13,319 bases of DNA. It comes from a virus. Its lineage: Duplodnaviria; Heunggongvirae; Uroviricota; Caudoviricetes. Positions 1,237-9,671 of this stretch are shown piece by piece (within the stretch, counting starts at the first letter, position 1; each line of letters begins with the position of its first letter). The notes under the pieces are model-generated. The model did not search any database. It had not been told where the DNA came from and saw only the letters and a list, made by a program, of their open reading frames with translations. The translations under genes and the position numbers were made by a program. Where the stretch lies: the IMG/VR virus record IMGVR_UViG_2529293239_000011; one strand, 5' to 3'.

Positions 1237-1310
1237 ATCATGAGTCTGAGGTAGCCTGAGTTTAACGGACACTCCTTCCTGAAATAGAATGGCATCAGAA
1301 GGAGCTAATA

Positions 1311-1613
1311 ATGAGCAGAAAAAACCAACGTTACTCTAAAGAGTTCAAAGCCGAAGCTGTCAGAACGGTTCTTGAAAATCAACTTTCGATCAGTGAAGGC
1401 GCTTCCCGATTATCCCTTCCTGAAGGCACTTTAGGACAATGGGTTACCGCCGCCAGAAAAGGGCTCGGTACTCCTGGTTCCCGCACGGTGGCTGAACTGG
1501 AATCTGAAATTCTGCAACTGCGTAAGGCGTTAAATGAAGCTCGCCTTGAGCGAGATATATTAAAAAAAGCAACAGCGTATTTTGCACAGGAGTCGCTGAA
1601 AAATACGCGTTAA
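1311..1613 (+). CDS. IS600 OrfA (transposase N-terminal, DNA-binding part), 100 aa
   Basis: Protein identical to the OrfA of the complete IS600 copy at 6173..6475; recognised as IS3-family OrfA. Confidence 0.9.
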   Translation: MSRKNQRYSKEFKAEAVRTVLENQLSISEGASRLSLPEGTLGQWVTAARKGLGTPGSRTVAELESEILQLRKALNEARLERDILKKATAYFAQESLKNTR

Positions 1614-1648
1614 TCGAACAATGGCGACAACAATTTCCCATTGAAGCG

Positions 1649-1875
1649 ATGTGTCAGGTATTTGGTGTATCCAGGAGCGGTTATTACAACTGGGTACAGC
1701 ATGAACCCTCAGACAGAAAACAAAGTGATGAGCGGCTAAAACTGGAGATTAAGGTGGCACATATCCGCACTCGCGAAACATATGGAACCCGGCGGCTCCA
1801 GACGGAGCTGGCAGAGAATGGCATCATCGTTGGTCGTGACCGACTGGCACGTCTTCGTAAGGAGCTAAGGCTACG
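1649..1875 (+). pseudogene. IS600 orfB, truncated after about 76 codons by the IS629 insertion
   Basis: Matches the N-terminus of the intact OrfB at 6511.. up to ...RKELRLR, then diverges into the IS629 terminal sequence. Confidence 0.85.
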
Positions 1876-1929
1876 TGAACCGCCCCGGGAATCCTGGAGA
1901 CTAAACTTCCTGAGAAAGAGGTAAACAGG

Positions 1930-2252
1930 ATGACTAAAAATACTCGTTTTTCCCCCGAAGTCCGTCAGAGGGCGATTCGTATGGTTCTGGAAAGTCAGGG
2001 CGAATATGACTCACAGTGGGCGGCAATTTGTTCCATTGCCCCAAAGATTGGCTGTACACCGGAGACTCTGCGTGTCTGGGTACGCCAGCATGAGCGGGAT
2101 ACCGGAGGCGGTGATGGCGGGCTCACCACCGCTGAACGTCAGCGTCTGAAAGAGCTGGAACGTGAAAATCGTGAACTGCGCCGCAGTAACGATATCCTTC
2201 GCCAGGCTTCCGCTTATTTTGCGAAGGCGGAGTTCGACCGCCTCTGGAAAAA

Positions 2253-2256
<4 letters not shown>
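1930..2256 (+). CDS. IS629 OrfA, 108 aa
   Basis: [33 protein letters not shown]..., recognised as IS629 OrfA with a helix-turn-helix and coiled-coil. Confidence 0.9.
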
Positions 2257-3494
<1,238 letters not shown>

Positions 3495-3641: not shown

Positions 3642-4328
3642 ATGACCCCAATAAACATATTTATGACAGTTGCTGATTTCAAACGGCCCAAATTGGAGCT
3701 CCCAAACGGGGCAAACAAACTACTACTGCACTCTTGCTGTGCTCCATGTTCCGGTGAGGTGATGGAGGCGCTTCAGGCCTCGGGAATCGACTACACCATC
3801 TTTTTCTACAACCCGAACATTCATCCTCAGAAAGAGTATTTAATTCGTAAGGATGAGAATATTCGCTTTGCTGAACAACACGGCGTGCCGTTTATTGATG
3901 CTGATTACGACACAGACAACTGGTTTGAACGAGCCAAAGGAATGGAATGGGAGCCCGAACGAGGGATCCGTTGCACCATGTGTTTTGACATGCGTTTTGA
4001 GCGGACAGCGCTGTACGCCGCTGAAAATGGTTTCAGTGTGATCAGCAGTTCACTGGGCATTTCACGCTGGAAAAATATGCAGCAGGTTAACGACTGTGGG
4101 CGGCGAGCCGTCGCGCATTATCCGGGCATGGTGTACTGGGATTATAACTGGCGCAAGCAGGGAGGCTCGTCCCGTATGATTGAAATCAGCAAGCGCGAAA
4201 AATTCTATCAGCAGGAATATTGTGGCTGTGTGTATTCTCTGCGCGATACCAATCTACACCGCAAATCTCAGGGACGCCCTCTTATCAAAATTGGTCAACT
4301 CCACTACGGTAAAGAAGAGAAGGAGTGA
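3642..4328 (+). CDS. queH: QueH-like epoxyqueuosine reductase (DUF208 family), 228 aa (alternative start at 3663)
   Basis: Contains motifs I associate with DUF208/QueH: [12 protein letters not shown] near the N-terminus, [26 protein letters not shown] and QEYCGCVYS. Neither candidate ATG has a good Shine-Dalgarno. Confidence 0.6.
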
Positions 4329-4350
4329 TTTTATGGGGCACCTTTCTGAT

Positions 4351-4380
4351 TGATTTCATATTGGCGAGGTAAGTAGAATG
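4351..4380 (+). promoter_or_regulatory. Candidate hok mRNA promoter (-35 TTGATT at 4351..4356, -10 TAGAAT at 4375..4380)
   Basis: Sigma70-like hexamers with 18-bp spacing; predicted start near 4387 coincides with GGGUGCUUGAGG, which resembles the 5' end of plasmid R1 hok mRNA. Confidence 0.45.
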
Positions 4381-4395
4381 ACTGCGGGTGCTTGA

Positions 4396-4440
4396 GGCTA
4401 TCTGCTTCAGGCTATCTGCTTCAGGCTATCTGCTTCAGGC
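4396..4440 (+). repeat. Tandem direct repeat, 14-bp unit GGCTATCTGCTTCA in 3.2 copies, within the predicted hok mRNA 5' leader
   Basis: Perfect copies at 4396..4409, 4410..4423 and 4424..4437, plus partial GGC; a partial inverse (GGCAGATAG) follows at about 4454. Confidence 0.9.
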
Positions 4441-4526
4441 ATGAACACCAAAAGGCAGATAGAGAAAAGCCCCAGTTAACATTACGCGTCCGGCAAGACG
4501 CTTAACATTAATCTGAGGCCAATTTC

Positions 4527-4739
4527 ATGCTTTGCACATGTAGGTTAGCCTCTTACATGCCGAAAGGCAAGGAGAAGCAGGCTATGAAGCAGCAAAAGGC
4601 GATGTTAATCGCCCTGATCGTCATCTGTTTAACCGTCATAGTGACGGCACTGGTAACGAGGAAAGACCTCTGTGAGGTACGAATCCGAACCGGCCAGACG
4701 GAGGTCGCTGTCTTCGTAGACTACGAATCCAGGAAGTAA
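4527..4739 (+). CDS. mok: Mok-like overlapping reading frame (modulator of killing), 70 aa, in-frame N-terminal extension of hok
   Basis: ORF MLCTCRLASYMPKGKEKQA followed by the hok sequence; same arrangement as mokC/hokC in E. coli K-12. Confidence 0.55.
   Translation: MLCTCRLASYMPKGKEKQAMKQQKAMLIALIVICLTVIVTALVTRKDLCEVRIRTGQTEVAVFVDYESRK
4584..4739 (+). CDS. hok: Hok/Gef family type I toxin (small membrane toxin), 51 aa
   Basis: MKQQKAMLIALIVICLTVIVTALVTRKDLCEVRIRTGQTEVAVFVDYESRK closely resembles HokD/RelF and HokC/Gef; AAGGAG Shine-Dalgarno 8 nt upstream; GC hairpin right after the stop (4748..4775). Confidence 0.85.
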   Translation: MKQQKAMLIALIVICLTVIVTALVTRKDLCEVRIRTGQTEVAVFVDYESRK

Positions 4740-4795
4740 GAGTGACCGGGCGGGGAGCTGATCCCATCCCCGCCCACCTCTGATGTGTCAGGCAT

Positions 4796-4808
4796 CCTCA
4801 ACGCACCC
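4796..4808 (+). other. Candidate fbi (fold-back inhibition) element of hok mRNA, complementary to its 5' end
   Basis: CCTCAACGCACCC is near-complementary to the 5' end GGGTGCTTGAGG at 4386..4397. Confidence 0.4.
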
Positions 4809-4816
4809 GCACTTAA

Positions 4817-4859
4817 CCCGCCCATCGCTGTGATCTCTCAGCGTTTCGGCGGGTTTTTT
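4817..4859 (+). terminator. Rho-independent terminator, likely the hok mRNA 3' end
   Basis: Nested stem (CCCGCC...GGCGGG with inner CGCTG...CAGCG) followed by TTTTTT. Confidence 0.55.
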
Positions 4860-4879
4860 GTTGTTTATTTCCGGTGAAT

Positions 4880-4907
4880 TTGATTCGCGCACCTTCGCAG
4901 ATAGAAT
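4880..4907 (+). promoter_or_regulatory. Candidate sigma70 promoter (-35 TTGATT, 16-bp spacer, -10 TAGAAT) upstream of the orphan ORF
   Basis: Hexamers at 4880..4885 and 4902..4907. Confidence 0.35.
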
Positions 4908-4988: not shown

Positions 4989-5276
4989 ATGAAAATCGAA
5001 GAATTGCGTGAAATTTTTAGTGAAAATGGCCTCTATGCTGTGCGCGTTGAGAATGGAGCGATTGTCAGCCATTGCCGCATTAGATGTTTGCAATCTCAAC
5101 AAAGGAAGAGCGGTGCTGTGTTATTTTATTTTTGTAATGGACTTCTGACGGACGGTTTTATTTTGCGTGAGGACGAATTTGTCACATCATTACGGGTTTT
5201 GAAAGAGATTGGTTTTAAGGCTGGTTTTCTGCTTTTGCTGAAGAATAAACTCATCTACAATCTTGAGCAGGATTGA
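4989..5276 (+). CDS. Hypothetical protein, 95 aa, no family recognised
   Basis: ATG start with GGAAGGA Shine-Dalgarno-like sequence upstream; closely spaced with the next gene in the same orientation. Confidence 0.45.
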   Translation: MKIEELREIFSENGLYAVRVENGAIVSHCRIRCLQSQQRKSGAVLFYFCNGLLTDGFILREDEFVTSLRVLKEIGFKAGFLLLLKNKLIYNLEQD

Positions 5277-6108: not shown

Positions 6109-6172
6109 TGAGGTAGCCTGAGTTTAACGGACACTCCTTCCTGAAATAGAATGGCATCAGAAGGAGCTAATA

Positions 6173-6475
6173 ATGAGCAGAAAAAACCAACGTTACTCTA
6201 AAGAGTTCAAAGCCGAAGCTGTCAGAACGGTTCTTGAAAATCAACTTTCGATCAGTGAAGGCGCTTCCCGATTATCCCTTCCTGAAGGCACTTTAGGACA
6301 ATGGGTTACCGCCGCCAGAAAAGGGCTCGGTACTCCTGGTTCCCGCACGGTGGCTGAACTGGAATCTGAAATTCTGCAACTGCGTAAGGCGTTAAATGAA
6401 GCTCGCCTTGAGCGAGATATATTAAAAAAAGCAACAGCGTATTTTGCACAGGAGTCGCTGAAAAATACGCGTTAA
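6173..6475 (+). CDS. IS600 OrfA, 100 aa
   Basis: Identical to the copy at 1311..1613. Confidence 0.9.
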   Translation: MSRKNQRYSKEFKAEAVRTVLENQLSISEGASRLSLPEGTLGQWVTAARKGLGTPGSRTVAELESEILQLRKALNEARLERDILKKATAYFAQESLKNTR

Positions 6476-6510
6476 TCGAACAATGGCGACAACAATTTCC
6501 CATTGAAGCG

Positions 6511-7329
6511 ATGTGTCAGGTATTTGGTGTATCCAGGAGCGGTTATTACAACTGGGTACAGCATGAACCCTCAGACAGAAAACAAAGTGATGAGCGGCTA
6601 AAACTGGAGATTAAGGTGGCACATATCCGCACTCGCGAAACATATGGAACCCGGCGGCTCCAGACGGAGCTGGCAGAGAATGGCATCATCGTTGGTCGTG
6701 ACCGACTGGCACGTCTTCGTAAGGAGCTAAGGCTACGCTGTAAGCAGAAACGCAAGTTCAGAGCGACTACGAACCCGAACCACAATCTGCCAGTTGCGCC
6801 AAATCTGCTGAACCAGACGTTCGCTCCTACAGCACCAAATCAGGTCTGGGTGGCGGACCTGACGTATGTTGCCACACAGGAGGGATGGTTGTACCTCGCT
6901 GGCATCAAAGATGTTTATACGTGCGAAATTGTCGGCTACGCCATGGGAGAGCGCATGACAAAAGAGCTGACAGGTAAAGCCCTGTTTATGGCGCTCAGGA
7001 GCCAGCGCCCACCTGCCGGGCTAATCCACCACTCTGATCGAGGTTCACAGTACTGCGCATACGATTACCGGGTCATACAGGAGCAGTCTGGTCTGAAAAC
7101 ATCAATGTCACGTAAAGGTCACTGTTACGACAACGCTCCGATGGAAAGCTTCTGGGGAACGCTGAAAAATGAGAGCCTGAGCCACTATCGTTTTAATAAC
7201 CGGGATGAAGCCATCTCAGTAATACGGGAATACATTGAGATTTTCTACAATCGTCAGCGTCGTCACTCTCGTCTGGGGAATATCTCCCCGGCAGCCTTCA
7301 GGGAAAAATATCATCAGATGGCTGCTTAA
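6511..7329 (+). CDS. IS600 OrfB (DDE transposase catalytic domain), 272 aa
   Basis: Contains VWVADLTYV, HHSDRGSQY and YDNAPMESF catalytic-region motifs. Confidence 0.9.
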   Translation: MCQVFGVSRSGYYNWVQHEPSDRKQSDERLKLEIKVAHIRTRETYGTRRLQTELAENGIIVGRDRLARLRKELRLRCKQKRKFRATTNPNHNLPVAPNLLNQTFAPTAPNQVWVADLTYVATQEGWLYLAGIKDVYTCEIVGYAMGERMTKELTGKALFMALRSQRPPAGLIHHSDRGSQYCAYDYRVIQEQSGLKTSMSRKGHCYDNAPMESFWGTLKNESLSHYRFNNRDEAISVIREYIEIFYNRQRRHSRLGNISPAAFREKYHQMAA

Positions 7330-7384
7330 AAAAAGAACAAATGGTAGTGTCCGCTATTGCCAGTACACCTCAGGAAGGTTATTT

Positions 7385-8128: not shown

Positions 8129-8205
8129 GGCCCTTTAGCTCAGTTGGTCAGAGCGAGCGACTCATAATCGCCAGGTCGCTGGTTCAAGTCCAGCAAGGGC
8201 CACCA
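8129..8205 (+). tRNA. tRNA with CAU anticodon, resembling E. coli ileX-type tRNA-Ile2 (cannot exclude tRNA-Met from sequence alone)
   Basis: Cloverleaf with 7-bp acceptor stem GGCCCTT/AAGGGCC, anticodon loop CTCATAA, T-loop TTCAAGT, encoded CCA. Confidence 0.85.
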
Positions 8206-8206
8206 A

Positions 8207-8283
8207 CCACCACTAGCTCATCCGGATAGAGCATCAACCTTCTAAGTTGACGGTGCGAGGTTCGAGTCCTCGGTGGTGGGCCA
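8207..8283 (+). tRNA. tRNA-Arg (anticodon UCU, reads rare AGA codons)
   Basis: Acceptor CCACCAC/GTGGTGG, anticodon stem TCAAC/GTTGA with loop CTTCTAA, T-loop TTCGAGT, encoded CCA. Confidence 0.85.
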
Positions 8284-8285
8284 GC

Positions 8286-8361
<76 letters not shown>

Positions 8362-8364
8362 TAT

Positions 8365-8425
<61 letters not shown>

Positions 8426-8497
8426 TGAAGTGGCACACTGAATTTGGCCACCTGAACAGAGGTGATATGCTCACCTCAGAACAACACAGGTGCTCCA

Positions 8498-9663
<1,166 letters not shown>

Positions 9664-9671
9664 CCACTTCA

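Follow-up and report, generated by a model that had tools for sequence, protein, structure and literature searches.

Do three tandem copies of a 14-nucleotide unit in the leader of a hok-type toxin mRNA represent a recent expansion, and would they alter how that mRNA folds, opens for translation, and becomes exposed to its antisense RNA? The question is raised by a locus in a 13,319-nucleotide stretch of viral DNA (IMG/VR record IMGVR_UViG_2529293239_000011, hereafter the window), for which an earlier note, made without database searches, had proposed a complete hok/mok toxin locus with a triplicated leader repeat. We examined the identity and anatomy of the locus, the copy number of the repeat in related loci, and the predicted folding of RNAs that carry one, two, or three copies.

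Identity of the locus

The Hok protein encoded in the window matches Pfam model PF01848 (HOK_GEF) over profile positions 1-42 of 42, with a score of 81.1 bits against a cut-off of 22 (E = 4.3e-23), and a public assembly collection has the identical protein in 3,093 indexed blocks. Rfam model RF01794 matches the + strand at 4386-4589 over model positions 1-157 of 157, at 108.5 bits where the gathering score is 59 (E = 2e-24). No NCBIfam model reaches its cut-off, the Hok subfamily model scoring 55 bits where 73 are required, and the name HokD therefore rests on RefSeq annotation of sister loci; RefSeq so labels a near-identical E. coli locus beside QueH. Some gene callers attach the PF01848 annotation to the 70-residue mok product of sister loci as well. 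These matches, together with the tac/fbi, ucb/SD-mok, tac/ucb, and SD-mok/dcb pairings recovered in silico, bear out the identification proposed in the earlier note and support designation of the locus as a complete hokD-type hok/mok/sok type I toxin-antitoxin module.

The locus lies between queH and rem in what is left of a lambdoid prophage, decayed and riddled with IS elements, in a Shigella lineage of the S. flexneri serotype 6 type. Prophage hok/mok/sok systems are textbook examples, already catalogued and annotated, and nothing described here is therefore new in kind. All that sets this locus apart is a short 14-base repeat, which varies between strains and is placed in the RNA hairpin that normally silences the toxin message during its synthesis.

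Anatomy of the hok mRNA

Every part of the architecture that had been proposed (a candidate promoter, an mRNA 5' end resembling that of R1 hok, mok, hok with its Shine-Dalgarno sequence, a 3' complement to the 5' end, and a terminator) is present at 4350-4859. Table 1 lists the features.

Table 1. Features of the hok/mok/sok locus in window coordinates. Element names (tac, ucb, dcb, fbi) are those used in PMC9841398.
Feature	Position	Strand	Description and basis
Candidate hok promoter	-35 TTGATT 4350-4355; -10 TAGAAT 4374-4379	+	18-nt spacer; sigma70-like consensus scan
tac (mRNA 5' end)	4386..4397	+	GGGUGCUUGAGG; pairs with fbi (full-length MFE, ensemble) and with ucb (Rfam consensus, 5'-domain folds)
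Ancestral 5' metastable hairpin	4390..4412	+	Arm a1 GCUUGAGGC 4390-4398, loop UAUCU, arm a2 GCUUCAGGC 4404-4412
tac-stem, 3' side	4453..4473	+	Upper-stem arm AAGGCAGAUAGAG, core GCAGAUAG 4455-4462; Rfam consensus structure and folds
ucb / anti-SD	4467-4473	+	AAGCCCC; Rfam consensus structure and folds
Predicted Sok RNA	about 4535 to 4461	-	About 70-75 nt; 5' single-stranded tail, long hairpin, GGGGCUUUUCUCU tail
mok initiation region and Sok target hairpin	4515..4552	+	SD GAGG 4515-4518, ATG 4527, UUUG loop, dcb GCCUC 4548-4552
mok ORF	4527..4739	+	70 codons; ORF list; in-frame N-terminal extension of hok
Candidate sok promoter	-35 TTGCCT 4570-4565; -10 TAACCT 4547-4542	-	17-nt spacer; positional conservation
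hok toxin gene	4584..4739	+	51 aa; SD AGGAG 4570-4574, 9 nt before ATG
GC-rich hairpin	4749..4775	+	GGGCGGGG...CCCCGCCC; in all MFEs
fbi	4796..4808	+	CCUCAACGCACCC; complementary to tac 4386-4397, 12 bp with one bulged C
Intrinsic terminator	4817..4859	+	CCCGCC 4817-4822 and GGCGGG 4848-4853 around an inner hairpin, then T6 4854-4859; in MFE

The promoter scan returned two sites where 0.5 were expected in shuffled sequence. Transcription of hok probably starts at about G4386, the nucleotide to which the first position of the Rfam hok-leader model aligns. The SD of mok sits 8 nt 5' of its ATG, and the UUUG loop of the mok initiation hairpin is one that we take to be YUNR-like, as in Sok/hok recognition. 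The terminator was overlooked by a simple scan because of its long loop.

Folding in silico recovers the structures expected of the family at both ends of the message. The metastable hairpin, folded as a 31-nt nascent RNA, has a predicted energy of -14.3 kcal/mol (z = -3.3); six further members of the family, R1-like plasmid loci among them, yield the same hairpin, with a compensatory change of U-A to G-C. In the full-length RNA, the 3' element that had been thought to pair with the 5' end does so, 4796-4808 with transcript nucleotides 1-12, both in the MFE structure and in essentially the whole ensemble. The ucb/SD-mok pairing of the closed state has an ensemble probability of about 0.8, and the SD-mok/dcb stem appears in open-state folds. 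The closed state (ucb/SD-mok) and the open state (tac/ucb plus SD-mok/dcb) are both MFE structures, at different transcript lengths, and both also occur in the ensembles. By analogy with R1, whose truncated hok mRNA (Tr-hok) ends in a terminal GC stem (PMC9841398), the GC-rich hairpin just 3' of hok is likely to be the protective 3'-terminal stem of the processed message.

The predicted Sok antisense RNA

An antisense Sok RNA had been expected on the minus strand around 4440..4560, and a candidate with a family-conserved promoter does occur there. Its start was placed 7 nt downstream of the conserved -10, and its ends by homology. The predicted RNA folds at -30.2 kcal/mol (z = -4.9), none of 200 shuffled sequences folding as well; it has a U-rich tail, and its 5' tail is complementary to the mok start region. 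The promoter signature TTGC...TAnnCT is invariant in position in six diverse hok loci. The candidate -10 overlaps dcb, an arrangement described for R1 (PMC9841398). The candidate Sok unit escaped a generic scan for promoters and terminators, the promoter's match to consensus being too weak for so simple a scan. The Rfam match named 'sok' was ruled out as the Sok gene: it runs along the + strand from the mRNA 5' end to the hok AUG, and thus models the hok leader rather than the antisense RNA.

The tandem repeat

Direct reading of the sequence finds three perfect tandem GGCTATCTGCTTCA units, at 4396-4409, 4410-4423, and 4424-4437, just as the earlier note had reported. Tandem Repeats Finder describes the same array as 4389-4440, with period 14, 3.7 copies, 97% matches, and a score of 97. 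An imperfect partial copy lies directly 5' of the triplicated array (TGCTTGAGGCTATC versus TGCTTCAGGCTATC). Two extra exact tandem copies of a 14-mer have a probability of about 4^-28 per site, and the triplication is therefore not a chance occurrence.

Aligned to the Rfam hok-leader model, the array shows as 30 nt inserted into the hairpin 1 loop. Within the conserved 5' metastable hairpin, the GGCTATCTGCTTCA unit covers the loop together with the 3' arm, and it doubles as the 5' arm of the upper tac-stem, and the extra units supply two further arm copies, a3 (4418-4426) and a4 (4432-4440), to the metastable hairpin region. The possibility that the repeat creates a new promoter was ruled out by a consensus promoter scan, which found none on either strand. 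Overlap with Sok or its promoter was likewise ruled out, since no less than 24 nt separate the array from the predicted Sok 3' end, whose position is about 4461 or higher.

Copy number among related loci

The closest E. coli locus (FDAARGOS_943) is identical to the window over about 540 nt except for a single 28-nt gap. Of 25 related loci compared, 21, other Shigella and E. coli loci among them, have a single copy of the unit, two have two copies, and two have three. The three-copy loci are the window itself and that of Shigella flexneri serotype 6 strain CCH060 (complete genome CP099865.1, L009), which has four further differences from the window. The window, L009, and a further record, L004, share a common IS context and show four to six other differences over 10.7-13.3 kb, while carrying three, three, and two copies, respectively. 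Since two- and three-copy alleles occur in otherwise near-identical, IS-rich contexts, the array must be viewed as a real slipped-strand VNTR. Comparison with the relatives shows the expansion that the earlier note had proposed: one copy, not three, is the ancestral state, and the triplication is derived. The finding that would have refuted the note, homologous loci with three copies as the ancestral state, was thus not obtained.

Tandem repeats can in principle be mis-assembled, so an assembly or sequencing artefact deserves mention, but nothing specific speaks for one here. The 42-nt array is far below any read length, the three copies recur in an independent complete genome with its own four differences, and the two-copy intermediate is present in two further records. 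An artefact has negligible probability, and is rejected on the strength of these independent three-copy and two-copy records.

Only four records with multiple copies were found, all of them in closely related contexts. A two-copy probe, in both unit variants, had no matches in 5,426 complete E. coli genomes, in which a 31-nt single-copy probe used as positive control did give matches. Alleles with at least two copies were absent from INPHARED phages, PLSDB plasmids, and GTDB species representatives. A degenerate two-copy pattern, designed for expansions in other hok leaders, found none in the GTDB representatives and matched only two records, L003 and L004, in IMG/VR; its sole metagenome match (L015) was rejected as an unrelated GC-rich repeat. 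The repeat in the leader is mentioned neither in two papers on hok (PMC9841398, bioRxiv 10.1101/2025.08.07.668861) nor in the text of an S. flexneri MLVA paper (PMC2806262).

Predicted folding of one-, two-, and three-copy RNAs

In the full-length RNA, an enforced tac/fbi pairing carries no penalty (0.0 kcal/mol against the free ensemble) with one, two, or three copies. Early in transcription the alleles are predicted to differ. With expansion, the predicted energy of the nascent 5' structure falls from -17.1 to -26.1 kcal/mol, and findpath puts the barrier to the tac-stem at 13.2 instead of 11.0 kcal/mol. Only in the three-copy RNA do the metastable hairpin and the upper stem form together in the predicted folds.

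For the processed message, results vary with the 3' end assumed. In the leader alone, the open tac/ucb state costs 1.3, 4.6, and 6.1 kcal/mol for one, two, and three copies, and its ensemble probability is 0.14 with one copy and no more than 0.001 with two or three. In RNA truncated at 4780 the corresponding costs are 3.6, 6.6, and 4.5 kcal/mol, and at 4790 they are 3.6, 3.6, and 3.2 kcal/mol, values that leave the alleles indistinguishable. The MFE of the 5' domain, and also of the leader through dcb, contains the open tac-stem even with three copies. At the truncation point judged most plausible, ViennaRNA does not make the open state the prevailing one even with the single ancestral copy, the penalty there being 3.6 kcal/mol. 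Because of this, and because the alleles are indistinguishable at 4790, the direction and size of any effect of the repeat depend on the model.

Accessibility of the hok AUG shifts in opposite ways, from 0.61 to 0.17 in the leader-only RNA and from 0.005 to 0.32 at truncation 4797. Masking of the hok start by an extra CUGCUUC, through the two GAAGCAG motifs that flank the hok AUG, is seen in some MFE structures and is not robust. The folds weakly suggest that extra copies alter folding. The earlier suggestion that they would do so thus holds in part: the 5' hairpin and the balance of open and closed states are predicted to shift, modestly, while no change is predicted in the Sok target or in the fold of the full-length RNA.

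Interpretation of the expansion

We consider it likely that this hokD-type module operates by the canonical hok pathway, and that a recent slipped-strand expansion from one to two to three copies has had an effect between neutral and mildly attenuating. The identity of the locus and the expansion itself are shown by the matches and alignments; the behavior of the RNA is something we infer from thermodynamic folding models. In the nascent transcript, the 5' tac would be held in the local metastable hairpin. In full-length mRNA, end-pairing of tac with fbi would close the molecule, with ucb sequestering the mok SD. Slow 3' trimming would then allow the tac/ucb and SD-mok/dcb stems to form, opening mok and hok to translation and exposing the Sok target, and Sok, predicted as a minus-strand RNA of about 70 nt (about 4535 to 4461), would trigger decay of the opened message.

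Slippage probably took place between GCTTGAGGC and GCTTCAGGC, the two nearly identical hairpin arms, which are 14 nt apart, each added 14-nt unit contributing one more loop plus 3' arm. The full-length inactive fold, the Sok gene, and its target would be unaffected. Added copies would lengthen the hairpin that sequesters tac in nascent RNA, and in the tac-stem would form a small additional hairpin at the tip. With three copies, the upper tac-stem could use the last copy while the metastable hairpin stays unmelted, a state that would modestly favor the closed, untranslatable conformer to an extent that varies with the truncation point. On these models, the net effect on toxin activation is most likely neutral to mildly attenuating.

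A stronger consequence may be imagined, in which a more stable tac-sequestering 5' hairpin, and an upper stem able to form while tac stays bound, trap the processed mRNA closed, and Hok goes untranslated. The expansion would then be a loss of function or strong attenuation, and one more stage as a Shigella prophage toxin decays or is domesticated. We regard this as unlikely. The collapse of the tac/ucb probability in leader-only RNA would fit it, as would a rise of 3-5 kcal/mol in the open-state penalty in that RNA and at some truncations, and the surrounding prophage is heavily disrupted by IS elements. The R1 toxin message loses its toxicity through single substitutions that make the tac-stem weaker or the closed state stronger (PMC9841398). 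However, at truncations 4790 and 4780 the penalty of the three-copy allele rises by only 0 to 0.9 kcal/mol, the open tac-stem persists as the MFE in three-copy RNA, both for the 5' domain and for a leader extended through dcb, and the remaining elements of the locus are intact and identical to those of the one-copy E. coli locus.

Two further readings give the repeat a regulatory role. The added units might serve as alternative 5' arms that keep tac sequestered while the upper stem forms, making the expanded hairpin a heritable rheostat; were this so, the processed mRNA would convert later, or less completely, to its translatable and Sok-accessible form, and slippage among one, two, and three copies would tune activation of a prophage toxin in S. 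flexneri 6-type lineages. We find this unlikely as well. It is very improbable that reversible slippage has itself been selected, in the manner of a contingency locus, for tuning the speed of toxin mRNA activation and so diversifying prophage maintenance or abortive-infection behavior. The unit is placed exactly in the element that times activation, and assemblies with essentially identical flanks do differ in having two or three copies, but a single copy is found in most loci (21 of 25), the multi-copy records number only four and come from closely related contexts, and repeated independent gain or loss is not evident among the loci compared. Moreover, a 14-nt unit at two to three copies slips far less than classical contingency tracts, which counts against such selection. 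The reading we prefer remains that of a recent, neutral to mildly attenuating expansion in an otherwise canonical module.

Comparison with known systems

The hok/sok (parB) system of plasmid R1, the archetype of the family, has the same Hok/Gef domain and a leader that fits the same Rfam model. Its metastable 5' hairpin occupies the same position; the tac/fbi, tac/ucb, ucb/SD-mok, and SD-mok/dcb pairings are held in common; the candidate sok promoter here is in the same place, overlapping dcb; and a GC-rich stem follows hok in both. In contrast to the plasmid-borne R1 system, the present locus is in a chromosomal prophage, and it has two extra 14-nt units in the 5' hairpin region. Its leader has diverged from R1-like loci outside the conserved boxes, blastn matching only segments of 43-82 nt. 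Mok here is an in-frame, 70-residue extension of Hok, whereas the R1-like equivalent, annotated as DUF5431, is read in a different frame and stops within hok. The mokB and mokC genes of E. coli K-12 are in frame with hok, like mok here.

Closer relatives are the hokD-type loci of E. coli prophages (FDAARGOS_943, O18), which share the gene order queH, hok, rem, DUF1367. FDAARGOS_943 encodes an identical Hok and has one repeat unit rather than three. The common O18 type also has one unit, with C for T within it (GCCTCA), and differs further in its Hok C-terminus and in a simpler terminator, the terminator loop of the window having an insertion of about 25 nt by comparison. The O18 promoter is longer by 10 bp, relative to which the candidate hok promoter here has a 10-bp deletion.

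The hokD (relF) gene of the Qin prophage of E. coli K-12 encodes a homologous toxin and, on the K-12 map, has the same rem neighbor. That gene is reported (Pedersen and Gerdes 1999) to lie downstream of relBE without a mok/sok leader of its own, whereas the leader here is complete. HokD is listed as toxic (bioRxiv 10.1101/2025.08.07.668861).

The repeat resembles the slipped-strand VNTRs used in MLVA typing in its perfect short unit, in copy numbers that differ between near-identical genomes, and in a flanking direct repeat able to seed slippage. It differs from them in lying within a regulatory RNA hairpin, not in an ORF or promoter spacer, and in ranging only from one to three copies. The multi-copy alleles are in effect natural insertion mutants of the element that times refolding of hok mRNA, comprising the metastable hairpin and the upper tac-stem. 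The isogenic series of one, two, and three copies in sequenced strains, including CCH060, offers a ready test of how far a co-transcriptional folding trap tolerates duplication. The repeat may also serve as a minor typing marker in the S. flexneri 6-type lineage.

Tandem repeat in the leader of a hok/mok locus

Direct reading of the window finds three perfect tandem copies of GGCTATCTGCTTCA, at 4396-4409, 4410-4423 and 4424-4437. Tandem Repeats Finder reports the array as 4389-4440 (period 14, 3.7 copies, 97% matches, score 97), where the extra 0.7 copy arises because the preceding TGCTTGAGGCTATC is one base off the repeat register TGCTTCAGGCTATC. Chance would produce two more exact tandem 14-mers at a rate of about 4^-28 per site, which rules chance out. 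An earlier note, made from the sequence alone, had placed this triplicated unit inside the leader of a complete hok/mok locus, and both parts of that description hold. The toxin reading frame belongs to Hok/Gef, the leader is recognized by Rfam model RF01794 over its whole length (4386-4589, plus strand, scoring 108.5 bits where 59 is the gathering cut-off, and with 30 nt inserted in the loop of its first hairpin), and the expected pairings are recovered in folds. Relatives occur in 4,713 of 5,426 complete E. coli genomes by megablast, labeled in RefSeq as "type I toxin-antitoxin system toxin HokD" and adjoining QueH. By every sequence-level criterion tested the locus is a hok/sok family member, so the system is one already known. 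Processing, toxicity and Sok-dependent decay would be predicted for such a locus.

The elements are listed in the table below, with names taken from the R1 model (summary in PMC9841398). Pairing of tac with fbi and of ucb with the mok SD is present in the full-length minimum free energy (MFE) structure. When the 5' domain is folded by itself, the tac/ucb stem of the Rfam structure forms, and extending the fold as far as dcb yields the open state, including the SD-mok/dcb hairpin. The metastable hairpin and tac-stem are also kept, with compensatory change, in folds of R1-like loci. Here mok (4527-4739) shares its reading frame with hok, whereas the mok-equivalent ORF (DUF5431) of R1-like plasmid loci is out of frame.

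Elements of the hok/mok/sok locus in window coordinates
Element	Position	Strand	Sequence or basis
hok promoter	4350-4379	+	TTGATT-18-TAGAAT, promoter scan
hok transcription start	about 4386	+	inferred
tac	4386-4397	+	GGGUGCUUGAGG
Metastable hairpin arm a1	4390-4398	+	GCUUGAGGC
Metastable hairpin arm a2	4404-4412	+	GCUUCAGGC, 3' of loop UAUCU
Upper tac-stem 3' arm	4455-4462	+	GCAGAUAG
ucb / anti-SD	4467-4473	+	AAGCCCC
mok SD	4515-4518	+	GAGG
mok ATG	4527	+	
dcb	4548-4552	+	GCCUC
hok SD	4570-4574	+	AGGAG
hok toxin ORF	4584-4739	+	51 codons; Hok/Gef, Pfam PF01848, 81 bits
GC hairpin	4749-4775	+	terminal stem of processed mRNA by analogy to R1
fbi	4796-4808	+	CCUCAACGCACCC
Terminator	4817-4859	+	
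sok promoter	-35 4570-4565; -10 4547-4542	-	TTGCCT-17-TAACCT, alignment to family members
Sok candidate transcript	about 4535 to about 4461	-	homology

Between -35 and -10 (4356-4373), 10 bp that the O18-type locus common in E. coli carries (TGACGTGAGT; L002 3030-3100) are missing from this lineage, and its -35 hexamer at functional distance from TAGAAT is therefore TTGATT instead of TTGGCG. A second sigma70-like site, TTGATT-16-TAGAAT, with both hexamers identical to those of the hok promoter, lies at 4880-4907 (plus strand), upstream of a rem-like ORF (4989-5276). The terminator loop (4823-4847) is enlarged by about 25 nt, which include a small hairpin of their own, compared with the simple CCCGC-TTCG-GCGGG of E. 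coli O18, and the Hok C-terminus reads VDYESRK rather than TAYEPEE. Codon 47 of hok (Tyr47, TAC 4722-4724) lies in CUACGAA (4721-4727), which includes a UACG motif, here inside a near-perfect palindrome, UUCGUAG A CUACGAA; a preprint (10.1101/2025.08.07.668861) describes TadA A-to-I editing that turns the equivalent Tyr codon of hokD-type mRNAs into one for Cys.

Copy number among related loci

The nearest E. coli locus, in FDAARGOS_943, is identical to the window over about 540 nt but for a 28-nt gap that leaves one copy. Probes of 31 nt spanning two copies, in T and C unit variants, matched none of the 5,426 E. coli genomes, while a 31-nt single-copy control probe matched 19; no multi-copy unit was found in INPHARED phages, PLSDB plasmids or GTDB species representatives. 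IMG/VR holds two contigs with a two-copy unit (L003 and L004), and contigs encoding an identical Hok or QueH protein added 20 loci, of which 19 are single-copy and the remaining one, L009, has three copies. The earlier note had allowed that homologous loci might carry three copies as the ancestral state; these searches and the tally of 25 loci, with one copy in 21, two in 2 and three in 2, instead show that the triplication is not ancestral but a derived expansion. Nor are the extra copies an artefact. Contig L004 is collinear with the window throughout (13.3 kb), sharing its IS insertions and showing five other small differences, and has the unit twice. The best-matching record, L009 (CP099865.1, the chromosome of Shigella flexneri serotype 6 strain CCH060), differs by one mismatch and three single-base indels over 10.7 kb and has it three times. 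The array is therefore a genuine, lineage-restricted VNTR.

It likely expanded by slippage between the metastable hairpin's two arms, which in the DNA also form direct repeats at a distance of 14 nt. The arms agree at 8 of 9 positions in the T variant (GCTTCA) and at 7 of 9 in the C variant (GCCTCA) common in E. coli, and every expanded allele found is of the T variant. No description of a multi-copy hok leader allele was found in the literature, as far as our searches reach. It is a small polymorphism in a decaying prophage; its attraction is as a natural series of one-, two- and three-copy alleles in an element that times hok mRNA refolding. A separate repeat occurs in the QueH ORF, where CATGCGTTTTGA is duplicated in frame as a 12-nt tandem (3977-4000, plus strand, 91% match by Tandem Repeats Finder).

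A candidate Sok antisense RNA

Sok had been expected on the minus strand with its limits not set. Its predicted promoter aligns with TTGC...TAnnCT, invariant across six diverse family members, and overlaps dcb, as also described for R1 (PMC9841398). The candidate thereby delimited by homology begins with a 5' tail, single-stranded and complementary to the mok start region, runs on into a long hairpin and finishes in a tail of GGGGCUUUUCUCU; it has a fold of -30.2 kcal/mol (z = -4.9). A generic promoter and terminator scan flagged neither the sok promoter nor a Sok terminator. The predicted 3' end is at least 24 nt from the array, and the expansion would therefore leave Sok and its target unaltered. 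RF01794 is named "sok antitoxin (CssrC)", yet it runs from the hok mRNA 5' end into the hok AUG and is therefore a model of the hok leader in sense orientation. It has no match on the antisense strand, where Sok is encoded, and pipelines relying on it would give the wrong strand and extent for Sok.

Predicted effect on folding

The unit supplies the loop and 3' arm of the metastable hairpin and also the 5' arm of the upper tac-stem, so these two structures are mutually exclusive in one-copy RNAs. With three copies and GCAGAUAG transcribed, the MFE structure combines the tac-sequestering hairpin with an upper stem from copy 3, which is impossible for a one-copy RNA. Going from one copy to three takes the nascent 5' structure from -17.1 to -26.1 kcal/mol and raises the barrier to the tac-stem, estimated along a direct path, from 11.0 to 13.2 kcal/mol. 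The cost of the open tac/ucb state with one, two and three copies is 1.3, 4.6 and 6.1 kcal/mol for the leader only, 0.6, 3.3 and 2.2 for RNA truncated at 4765, 3.6, 6.6 and 4.5 at 4780, and 3.6, 3.6 and 3.2 at 4790; the open state is not dominant in the model for the one-copy ancestor either. With extra copies the models thus predict a modest lean toward the closed, untranslatable state, one that varies with the assumed 3' end. In computed folds of the full-length three-copy mRNA, tac/fbi closure is retained at a penalty of 0.0 kcal/mol, with the upper stem formed by copy 1 and a small apical hairpin by copies 2-3. The earlier suggestion that extra copies could alter folding would thus apply, to a modest degree, to the nascent 5' structure and the open/closed balance, but not to tac/fbi closure or the Sok target. 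We conclude from these models that the hok leader architecture would tolerate the insertion, and that its effect on activation is most likely none, or a mild delay or attenuation.

Prophage setting

The neighborhood is a lambdoid prophage, split in the window by IS elements, with genes for cI/Cro-like, YdaT, DUF977, QueH, Hok, Rem, DUF1367, YbcO and a DUF1133 Q-like protein, a tRNA cluster, holin and lysozyme. Three tRNAs of the cluster (8129-8428, plus strand) carry the anticodons CAT (Met by ARAGORN, Ile in the annotation of the E. coli homologue), TCT (Arg) and TGT (Thr). Where that homologue goes on to an intact tRNA-Gly, the window has a truncated fourth tRNA (29.3 bits, Rfam model positions 10-63), cut off at the IS start near 8425. 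Within that IS element (about 8426-9671) the window has three single-A deletions and one substitution (8731-8746, 9171) relative to L004 and L009 alike, which could be sequencing errors or reflect a different IS copy. One IS3-family element, which we take from its ORF sizes (100 and 272 aa) to be IS600-like, occurs in two copies, within 1247-3185 and 6109-7372. The first ends at 1875, abutting another IS3-family element of 1.3 kb with an ALIL frameshift pseudoknot (2211-2327, 116 bits), and the second sits between the DUF1367 and DUF1133 genes.
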